64,000 nucleotides of DNA from an uncultured Clostridia bacterium (GTDB lineage Bacteria; Bacillota; Clostridia; TANB77; CAG-508): NCBI GenBank assembly GCA_947625415.1, contig CANQOG010000003.1, positions 298 through 64,297 on the forward strand, in the 5' to 3' direction. A model generated the notes under the pieces. The model saw only the letters and a list, made by a program, of their open reading frames with translations. It did no database searches and was not told the DNA's origin. Position numbers and translations under genes: made by a program. Shown piece after piece: positions 62,555 to 63,944 of this stretch; the stretch's first letter is position 1; the number at the start of each line of letters is the position of its first letter.

Positions 62555-62681
62555 CTTAAATTTTGATTTAGAGCAAGTTTTGCAAGGCGCACAAACAATT
62601 TATCGACAAGACAGTACGTTTGTACAGTGAGGAGAAAATTGTTTTTAGCAACGCCACAAGACGAAGCTATAAATCGAAATT
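62555..62681 (-). repeat. GC-rich structured intergenic element, copy A (~127 nt), abutting the rpsN stop codon
   Basis: Transcript-strand ends AATTTCGATTTATAGC / GCTCTAAATCAAAATT pair with each other. Homologous to 63819-63944. Confidence 0.65.
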
Positions 62682-62867
62682 TTACCAACTAGCTTTCTTA
62701 ACTCCTGGAATTTCTCCTCTATGTGCCATTTCTCTGAAACATACACGGCAAATTCCAAATTTTCTTATATAACTATGTGGTCTTCCACAAATTCTACATC
62801 TATTGTATTCTCTAGTTGCATATTTTTGTGGTCTTGCTTGTTTAACTTTTAATGATTTTTTAGCCAT
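62682..62867 (-). CDS. rpsN: 30S ribosomal protein S14 type Z
   Basis: 61 aa: [10 protein letters not shown]...[23 protein letters not shown]. Confidence 0.95.
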
Positions 62868-62880
62868 AATTTCTCCTTTC

Positions 62881-63420
62881 TTAACTTCTAAAAGGCATTC
62901 CCAATAAAGTAAGCAATTCTTTTGCTTCTTCATCAGTTTTAGCTGTAGTTACGAATATAATATCCATACCTCTTAATTTATCAACTTTATCATATTCAAT
63001 TTCAGGGAAAATTAATTGCTCTTTTAATCCCATTGAATAATTACCTCTACCGTCAAATGAATTTCCAGAAACACCTCTAAAATCTCTAACTCTAGGTAAT
63101 GCTACATTAAATAATTTATAAGCAAAATCATACATTTTTCCTTTTCTTAATGTAACTTTGCATCCAACCTTCACACCTTCTCTTAATTTAAAAGCTGCAA
63201 TAGATTTTTTGGCTGTTGTTACAACTGGTTTTTGACCTGTAATTATACTTAAATCATTCATTGCATTATCTAATGATTTTGGATTATCTTTTATATCTCC
63301 TAAGCCAATGTTGATAACTATTTTTTCTAATTTTGGAACTTCCATAATAGAAGAATAGTTAAACTTTTTCATTAGCGCTGGAACAATCTCTTTTTCATAT
63401 TGTTCTCTAAGTACTTCCAT
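62881..63420 (-). CDS. rplE: 50S ribosomal protein L5
   Basis: Full-length similarity. Confidence 0.95.
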
Positions 63421-63448
63421 GTTAACTGCGTGCCTCCTTTCTTAAAAT

Positions 63449-63757
63449 CTATTTTATTTTTGCACCGCATTTTTTACATACACGAACTTTTTCATCTTTT
63501 TCCATTGTAAATCCAACTTTAACTGCTTTTTTGCATTTTGGACATACAACATTAACTTTGCTACTATAAATAGCACATTCAGCTGGAATAATTCCACCTT
63601 GTTCACCTTGTTTTCTAGGTTTAACATGTTTTTTTCTAATATTGATACCTTTAACTATAACTTTATCTTTCTTTGGAATAACTTCAAGAACTTCTCCTCT
63701 TTTTCCTCTATCATTTCCAGATAAAACCTCTACAGTATCACCCTTTTTTATTTTCAT
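63449..63757 (-). CDS. rplX: 50S ribosomal protein L24
   Basis: MKIKKGDTVEVLSGNDRGKRGEVL with a KOW motif. Confidence 0.95.
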   Translation of the reverse strand: MKIKKGDTVEVLSGNDRGKRGEVLEVIPKKDKVIVKGINIRKKHVKPRKQGEQGGIIPAECAIYSSKVNVVCPKCKKAVKVGFTMEKDEKVRVCKKCGAKIK

Positions 63758-63818
63758 TTCTTTATTTCACCCCTTTTATTTGAGTTTTTAATTTATTAGT
63801 CTATTTTTTTATCAACGC

Positions 63819-63944
63819 CTTAAATTTTGATTAGAAACGAGCAGAGCTAGGCGCGCGAATTAATTATTCGATGAGGCATACAAAAGTACGTCGATTCGAA
63901 AATTAATGAGCAGCAACAACGCTATGCGAAGTTTGTAATCGAAA
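63819..63944 (-). repeat. GC-rich structured intergenic element, copy B (~126 nt), abutting the rplN stop codon
   Basis: Shares AATTTCGATT..CTTCG..GCGTTG..ACGTACT..GCGCC..TCTAATCAAAATTTAAG with copy A. Confidence 0.65.

Follow-up and report, generated by a model that had tools for sequence, protein, structure and literature searches.

Two hairpins behind stop codons of a clostridial spc operon belong to a dispersed repeat family that is probably related to ERIC

The stretch of DNA studied here (the window) comprises 64,000 nucleotides of an uncultured Clostridia bacterium, namely C3:298-64297 of a 1.66-Mb genome on 75 contigs with 27% GC. Near its end lies the spc operon of ribosomal protein genes, in which two long hairpins stand directly behind the stop codons of rpsN and rplN. 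These hairpins are copies of a dispersed, non-coding family of imperfect palindromes of ~127 bp, which is present in ~20 copies in the genome. The family is gained and lost between related species, giving rise to presence/absence polymorphism, and the hairpin is kept through many compensatory changes. We consider it quite likely that both elements are ERIC-like repeats at stop codons, of the MITE type (miniature inverted-repeat transposable element), and probably distant homologues of ERIC. ERIC, also known as IRU or RU-1, was reportedly described by Sharples and Lloyd in 1990 and Hulton and co-workers in 1991. It has been a typing target for 35 years, and both its origin and its mobilising enzyme are still unexplained. 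The probable kinship with ERIC and the conservation of the hairpin apex across phyla are probably what is new here.

Two homologous hairpins in the spc operon

Read along the mRNA, both elements (62681 down to 62555 and 63944 down to 63819) start 0–1 nt past a TAA. They have the 5′ end AATTTCGATT, whose start reads (A)ATTTCGATT, and the 3′ end AATCAAAATTTAAG in common. The exact 14-mer of the 3′ end occurs twice in the window, both times at these elements, and pairwise alignment of the two gave a column identity of 79%. Folding yielded one long imperfect hairpin for each. Sequence, alignment and folds thus agree with an earlier note on this DNA, which had described two homologous hairpins of ~126 nt at 0–1 nt past the rpsN and rplN stops. 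The same note had called the elements much GC-richer than their surroundings; they are GC-richer (35–41% versus 25–32% in the flanks), a real but modest difference that "much" overstates.

The minimum free energies on the mRNA strand were −30.6 kcal/mol for the rpsN–rpsH element and −30.3 kcal/mol for the rplN–rplX element (z −4.9 and −2.1). The opposite strand folds better, with −35.9 and −41.3 kcal/mol (z −5.6 and −5.2). Both hairpins were retained when the entire spacers were folded, with the stop codons at the stem base. In these folds the downstream Shine-Dalgarno sequences, which follow 28–45 nt past the hairpins, were not sequestered. The sole open reading frame (ORF) that crosses an element is a frame of 46 aa.

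A dispersed family with a conserved hairpin

Iterated nhmmer searches detected 16 copies genome-wide. A covariance model (R1) built from 12 copies of this genome alone gave 22 matches in the genome, which correspond to ~19 full-length copies, 2 internally deleted ones and 1 match to the opposite strand of one copy. The genome-wide count that the earlier note had proposed as a check therefore returned more than the two known copies. R1 matched the rpsN–rpsH copy at C3:62854-62980 (window 62557-62683) with 101 bits and E 2e-18 and the rplN–rplX copy at C3:64118-64245 (window 63821-63948) with 135 bits and E 4e-26. The copies are 121–131 nt long, and each folds as a single hairpin with the termini RTTY...RAAY and a covarying outer stem of ~10 bp.

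The family occurs in both orientations and mostly in unrelated, non-ribosomal housekeeping operons. Other copies were located in the spacers carA–carB, pta–ackA, infB–rbfA, pgk–deoD, ylxM–ffh and rplI–dnaB, between two hydrogenase/NADH-dehydrogenase-like genes, between the pyruvate:ferredoxin oxidoreductase subunit genes porD and porA, upstream of thrS and upstream of 16S rRNA genes. The grpE–dnaK spacer contains two copies that are inverted relative to each other. Internally deleted derivatives of 55–70 nt, which have kept the outer stems, were found at C52:9860-9930 and C10:16616-16674, and a remnant in the rpsN–rpsH spacer of a relative (G017) has kept the outer stem alone. This suggests decay through deletion of the palindrome centre. 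As a separate observation, carB, carA and pta each appear split into 2 or 3 consecutive ORFs (C13:28936-32321, C33:6075-7071); these splits are frameshifts, which could reflect pseudogenes or assembly errors of this metagenome-assembled genome (MAG).

The structure was examined in two alignments. For 12 copies of this genome, aligned with MAFFT and not fitted to the model, RNAalifold predicted 28 pairs, 21 of them with compensatory changes; the outer stems vary between the copies and yet remain paired. In an alignment of 100 copies from many genomes, which was fitted to the model and thereby favours structure, 91.7% of the cells were paired compared with 62.5% after shuffling, and 27 of the 28 pairs had changed on both sides; the unfitted alignment agrees with it. 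The covariation score of the 100 copies was 0.692, whereas shuffles gave 0.186 (0 of 500 reached the observed score) and slid controls at most 0.145. Covariation across copies and related genomes, another check named in the earlier note, is therefore strong. The reverse complement of the model strand folded better in 88 of 100 copies, irrespective of the direction of transcription, and the G–U counts of the strands differed modestly (289 versus 211). This asymmetry is thus intrinsic to the conserved sequence and does not reveal the selected strand. Beyond structure and apex there is no consistent constraint at the sequence level. When syntenic orthologous pairs were compared with their flanks, two were better conserved (0.94 versus 0.84 and 0.95 versus 0.88 for the coding flanks) and ten were worse.

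Gain and loss among related genomes

With R1, the family was found in 14 of 41 relatives, comprising 12 of the genus's 25 genomes and three more families in the order. Across the class, it was present in at least 18 of 400 sampled genomes from at least 11 families, which is a lower bound, with 8 candidates scored per genome. The spc spacers of 30 relatives were measured. Both spc sites are empty in the closest relative examined (G018), which shows ~91% nucleotide identity (86–96% in spc genes) and whose RplE is 98% identical: the rplN–rplX spacer measures 39 nt compared with 187 nt here, and the rpsN–rpsH spacer 38 nt compared with 170 nt. Such elements inflate spacers in the ribosomal protein operons of MAGs, where they can be mistaken for regulatory RNAs and may cause assembly breaks.

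An rpsN–rpsH copy is also present in G006, G019, G022, G004 and one named MAG. Four of these five copies start directly past the TAA and that of G022 13 nt further. G012 has copies in the rplN–rplX, rplE–rpsN and rplF–rplR spacers. The closest counterparts of the window's rpsN–rpsH copy lie at other loci of G015 (0.62, 0.59), and the rpsN–rpsH copies of G006, G019 and G022 group together (0.85, 0.75), apart from it. The rpsN stop codon was therefore colonised at least twice. Among the roles proposed in the earlier note, MITE-like repeats at stop codons are thus supported by a dispersed, patchy family with terminal inverted repeats, by the empty sites in G018 and by the repeated colonisation of the rpsN stop.

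Position, orientation and target site

The large majority of copies lie in short spacers between co-directional genes (72 of 79 classifiable matches; 70 of 77 classifiable full-length copies). The 70 full-length copies in such spacers comprise 51 in sense and 19 in antisense orientation (p 2e-4). The 5′ end lies at most 8 nt from the upstream stop in 27 of the 51 sense copies, a lower bound because ORFs shorter than 80 aa were ignored, but in only 4 of the 19 antisense copies (Fisher p 0.03), which tend to adjoin the downstream Shine-Dalgarno sequence instead. Adjacency to a stop codon, which the earlier note had asked about for all copies, is thus common among sense copies and not universal.

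Both window copies read TAA–element–TAA. The first base of the 3′ flank is T in 66 of 96 copies and is followed by an A-rich run, in a genome with 73% A+T. Judged from these flanks, a target duplication of TA or TAA is suggested. We propose that the element inserts at TA or TAA, often at the stop codon itself; such an insertion would keep the stop codon, and a second TAA would follow the element.

Probable relationship to ERIC

ERIC is a MITE of ~127 bp with terminal inverted repeats, TA at both ends and target duplications, which is co-transcribed and for which no transposase is known; in Yersinia, one orientation lowers the level of the upstream transcript, because an RNase E site in the 3′ terminal inverted repeat is uncovered by ribosomes (PMC3184786, PMC2229807, PMC10969869). 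The repeat family of the window is ERIC-like and, on balance, probably homologous to ERIC/IRU of Enterobacteriaceae. For comparison, Escherichia coli ERIC copies were fetched from the chromosome with the joined ERIC1R and ERIC2 primer sequences. Ten E. coli loci of 3 kb each were searched with R1, which was built without any ERIC; in 7 of them its top match was the ERIC element, at full length, with 15–20 bits and in constant relative orientation. By chance, the top match is expected on ERIC in a few per cent of loci. In the reciprocal search, 86 kb were scanned without filters with a covariance model from 10 E. coli ERICs (R2). Its best match to the family had an E value of 3e-6 (a copy of G036); it also matched three copies of this genome (E 3e-5, 3e-4 and 5e-4) and a copy from a 65% GC MAG (25 bits, E 5.5e-4). 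The reverse strand of the same hairpins scored 7–20 bits lower in nine of nine comparable cases, which controls internally for what any hairpin of that size would score. Sequence alone also points to ERIC, as a sequence-only hidden Markov model (HMM) of the family reported nothing but ERIC apices on the E. coli loci (7 matches, best E 0.003).

Family and ERIC have three blocks in common in the same order: the 5′ arm contains TGYTGC, the apex CACKTAC-N4-GTAMGCYYC and the 3′ arm CGCCTT. TTCRAA-like termini are common to both as well. Both measure ~127 bp and form a single long imperfect hairpin, the apex being the best-conserved part. Both reside in spacers that are, or here probably are, transcribed, in either orientation with one preferred beside stop codons. 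TA-containing flanks, shortened variants with internal deletions and the lack of a known transposase are further common traits. ERICs that overlap or abut stop codons were likewise reported by De Gregorio et al. in 2005 to prefer one orientation. The family differs from ERIC in its hosts, which are Clostridia MAGs (this genome with 27% GC), the 65% GC MAG and others instead of Enterobacteriaceae and Vibrionaceae, in its low sequence identity outside the apex and in its low copy number (~20). An E. coli ERIC (L221:259-382, ybhJ–ybhI spacer) matched the Rfam family RF02818 V_AS5, an ERIC-like family of Vibrio, with 46 bits and E 6.5e-9, below the gathering score of 96; this "antisense RNA" family, "Vibrio RNA AS5", itself appears to be an ERIC-like repeat. 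Rfam 15 gave nothing at the window elements, either at the gathering threshold or at E <= 10, and nothing for the Oscillospiraceae or GC-rich variants.

Instead of common descent, the resemblance could reflect convergence, with the family being an independent long-hairpin repeat, as are bcr1, RUP and Correia, that has in common with ERIC only the size and a short GTAC-type apical hairpin. This would be in line with the sequence-only similarity, which is weak and confined to ~40 nt of the apex. It would also fit the lack of a V_AS5 match in the family and the great distance between the phyla, ERIC having been reported from Enterobacteriaceae and Vibrionaceae only (PMC10969869). However, the covariance model matches are reciprocal, full-length and consistent in orientation, and three separate blocks recur in the same order at the same places of the hairpin. 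Furthermore, the family of the GC-rich MAG combines the exact 21-nt apex with the R2 match and thereby bridges both groups. We therefore regard convergence as rather unlikely.

Several results nevertheless weigh against the interpretation of the window elements as mobile, ERIC-like repeats. The link to ERIC is statistical and distant, and any hairpin of suitable size may earn some 15 bits of a match by its shape alone. R2 scored the rplN–rplX copy of the window at 12.8 bits (E 0.8); the other window copy, in rpsN–rpsH, stayed below the threshold. An ERIC sequence HMM had no match in this genome, and V_AS5 matched neither the window nor any of six family loci at E <= 10. Paralogous copies are 55–75% identical to one another, without a sign of recent transposition here; activity is therefore old or rare. 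No clean pair of a filled and an empty site was found for the target duplication, the spacers of the nearest relative being too diverged. IS630-type transposases are the usual partners of TA-duplicating MITEs; such DDE_3 transposases were absent from 41 of 41 genomes. Y1 transposases showed no association with the family: they occur in 8 of 14 genomes that have it and in 10 of 27 that lack it (long Y1 type, 7 of 14 versus 5 of 27). Finally, an autonomous parent or ORF-bearing version was not seen in a search that was not exhaustive.

If the family is a true relative of ERIC, it extends the known range of ERIC beyond Enterobacteriaceae and Vibrionaceae. A related family in gut Clostridia or other phyla would provide the phylogenetic spread for a search for the partner by phylogenetic profiling. 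Moreover, relatives in other phyla would allow the generality of the orientation-dependent mRNA decay effect in Yersinia to be tested.

The conserved apex in other phyla

The apical 21-mer CRACGTACCYTTGTACGCCTC was scanned in one genome per species, which gave 98 stretches. Many gut Clostridia MAGs are among the hosts (Oscillospiraceae, 'Eubacteriales', Clostridium sp. 27_14, HGW-Firmicutes-15, Syntrophomonadaceae). The apex was also present in the 65% GC MAG, which is labelled Polyangiaceae (at least 9 contigs), and in one Patescibacteria contig. In those genomes it sits on differently built stems. A literature search for the 21-nt core found no paper.

A tentative extension, which we consider unlikely as it stands, would make ERIC one branch of a cross-phylum superfamily of ~127-nt hairpins whose folded apex is recognised by an unknown, widespread partner. 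It would range over Clostridia, Gammaproteobacteria, the 65% GC MAG with its Myxococcota label, Syntrophomonadaceae and possibly Patescibacteria. The apical hairpin of ~21 nt would be near-invariant, and termini and stems would drift by compensatory changes, which is the reverse of transposase-driven MITEs. This partner could be a recombinase that acts on DNA hairpins, or else a conserved factor that binds or processes RNA. If true, recognition of the apex would account for both the spread and the retention of such "orphan" elements.

A larger element that includes the 21-nt apex and is unmatched by R1 was observed in L043-L140 (Oscillospiraceae SIG680/SIG702/SIG646, 'Eubacteriales' JAZSMX and others). 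An additional 5′ hairpin of this element, GGTTGAATTTCTTCGAAATTCT, precedes a GTCTCAAAT-N4-ATTTGAGAC hairpin; the element is sometimes arranged in tandem and occurs in many copies per genome.

Candidate movers and other repeat families

Several generic features of MITEs are present in the family: it is small, non-coding, bounded by terminal inverted repeats and polymorphic in presence between relatives. As to a mover, phages were rejected as vectors because the core sequence was absent from 2.9 million viral contigs. A RAYT/Y1 transposase was rejected in view of the lack of a clear association, and the RAYT-like gene found here is accompanied by a repeat of another kind. This gene (C39:~14700-15600, minus strand) is a 278-aa open frame with 54.8 bits to PF01797; inverted copies of GACAAAAGCTCCGTCCCTCTGTC, of which one is doubled, lie on its flanks, and it represents a separate REP/RAYT system. 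A single-strand mechanism like that of IS200/IS605, with a fixed orientation to replication, is opposed by antisense copies in the infB, dnaK, ffh and rRNA operons, which are normally leading-strand, and by the two inverted grpE–dnaK copies; we infer from this that it does not apply. Integron attC sites, considered in view of the GTT...AAC ends, were dismissed on inspection, since the arms are arranged the opposite way and there are no cassette arrays.

Among known repeats, bcr1 is a MITE-like repeat of Firmicutes, ~150 bp long, which forms a stable hairpin, is transcribed with neighbouring genes, duplicates a TTTAT target and has many near-identical recent copies. The present paralogues, in contrast, are 55–75% identical. 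PMC3110155 and PMC3184786 cite the bcr1 repeats for the Bacillus cereus group. Correia/NEMIS of Neisseria and RUP of Streptococcus pneumoniae resemble the family in having 100–150 bp and terminal inverted repeats; they have TA termini and are co-transcribed, as is suggested for the family. RUP is linked to the IS630-type transposases that the 41 genomes lack. In Correia elements, the hairpin is a substrate that RNase III cleaves (PMC10969869). REP/BIME elements and REPINs with RAYT (PMC3116915, PMC3733652) are, like the family, palindromic, intergenic and often found in operons, with proposed effects on mRNA stability. Their units measure 20–40 bp, carry a conserved GTAG or CGTC head and go together with a RAYT gene, whereas the family forms a single 127-bp hairpin in which the apex rather than the ends is conserved.

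Possible effect on the spc mRNA

As no terminator is present in the element, we propose that the elements are co-transcribed in the spc mRNA; in the window from 61000 to 64000, no terminator-like site was detected on either strand. Each would form an imperfect RNA hairpin of ~55 bp with the stop codon in its base. A ribosome terminating at rpsN or rplN would then melt the lower stem and free the AU-rich 3′ arm (AAUCAAAAUUUAAG). The freed arm could expose a site for an endonuclease (RNase E/G), as proposed for the Yersinia ERIC, and RNase III could cut the intact stem. Such cleavage would decouple upstream from downstream cistron levels. This genome has genes for both RNase E/G and RNase III, and a role in RNA processing or stability, the second candidate of the earlier note, is plausible. 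By analogy with ERIC, the elements probably modulate mRNA processing or are near neutral. Any such effect may be minor, and in essence the element may be a genomic parasite that is tolerated; since close relatives lack the elements, the effect would be dispensable.

It is also conceivable that the elements were spread by selection rather than by selfish mobility, as elements that the host selects for RNA processing or stability (sites for RNase III or RNase E/G, or barriers to 3′-exonucleases) and that set cistron ratios in highly expressed operons. The location of the copies, almost only in operons of highly expressed housekeeping genes, would fit such a role, as would the maintenance of the hairpin by compensatory changes, the 51:19 orientation bias with orientation-dependent stop-codon adjacency, the two syntenic orthologous pairs that are better conserved than their coding flanks and the genes for both RNases. 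However, the same sites are empty in close relatives, copies are found in both orientations, even side by side in grpE–dnaK, and in ten other syntenic pairs the element evolves faster than its flanks. Internally deleted remnants persist, and the distribution across the class is sparse and patchy. Altogether, selection by the host appears quite improbable as the cause of the spread. We give hardly any credence to the undescribed r-protein-binding regulatory RNA of the earlier note, that is, to spc-specific cis-regulatory RNAs that bind a ribosomal protein for feedback control. Two copies do lie in the spc operon, relatives have copies in spc/S10 spacers (rplE–rpsN, rplF–rplR and ~4 kb upstream of rplE), and the apex CGUACCUUUGUA recalls what we take to be a conserved stretch of 23S rRNA. 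Most copies here, however, lie in non-ribosomal operons, between roughly a quarter and a third run antisense to the mRNA, neither the nearest relative nor most of the genus has an element at these sites, and the 65% GC genome carries the family in unrelated contexts. An autoregulatory leader of ribosomal protein genes was likewise rejected, as the family is neither confined to their operons, nor sense-only, nor site-conserved among relatives.

Layout of the region and additional observations

The spc operon on the minus strand has the gene order rplN (beyond the window end), rplX, rplE, rpsN, rpsH, rplF, rplR, rpsE, rplO, secY, adk. Its features around the two ERIC-like elements are compiled in Table 1. 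The remainder of the rpsN–rpsH spacer is about as long as the entire 38-nt spacer of G018.

Table 1. Features around the two palindromic repeats (window coordinates unless stated otherwise)
Feature	Position	Strand	Remark	Basis
rpsH	62511-62113	−		ORF list
Spacer remainder with rpsH Shine-Dalgarno sequence (AAAGGAGGG)	62512..62554	−		Sequence
Palindromic repeat, rpsN–rpsH spacer	62555..62681	−	5′ arm directly behind rpsN TAA	Sequence, fold, covariance model
rpsN, short zinc-type S14 (MAKKSLKV...ASW)	62682..62867	−	TAA 62682-62684 adjoins element	ORF list and sequence
rplE	63420-62881	−		ORF list
rplX	63757-63449	−		ORF list
Spacer remainder with rplX Shine-Dalgarno sequence (AAAGGGGTG)	63758..63818	−	Outside hairpin	Sequence, fold
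Palindromic repeat, rplN–rplX spacer	63819..63944	−	Stop codon inside stem base	Sequence, fold, covariance model
rplN TAA	63945-63947	−	Abuts or overlaps first bases of element	
rplN 3′ end, gene continuing beyond window	63945..64000	−	Genome C3:64242-64610	ORF and sequence
Second, shorter repeat	L029-L031 rpsN–rpsH spacers; L017 rpsH–rplF spacer			

The second, shorter hairpin repeat (roughly AGAGACTGTnCnAnGCGTAAGCnnGnTACAGTGTCT) was observed in spc spacers of the relatives G014, G011, G009 and G024; several hairpin families therefore colonise these operons. The rpsH–rplF spacer (window 62025-62112, minus strand) contains a genus-conserved motif made up of ATGGCGAAAAG, a variable hairpin and AATTAACCAAATATATAATTA right before the rplF Shine-Dalgarno sequence. 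This motif is also present in the rpsH–rplF spacers of L014, L016 and L022-L024, and other relatives have the alternative block AAATGTCTTTAAAAGAATTTAAGCTAAGGCAGAAAATTTAAAG. These motifs may be real leader elements.

In a complete Clostridia genome (G172:C1), five matches to the family had equal scores (10581, 42826, 53486, 58914 and 2316230); possibly, these copies lie inside repeated rRNA operons, like the copies upstream of 16S rRNA genes here. Elsewhere in the window, two Rfam matches reached the gathering level, both on the minus strand: a T-box leader at 17352-17581 (111.6 bits) and a c-di-GMP-I riboswitch at 47482-47569 (70.5 bits).

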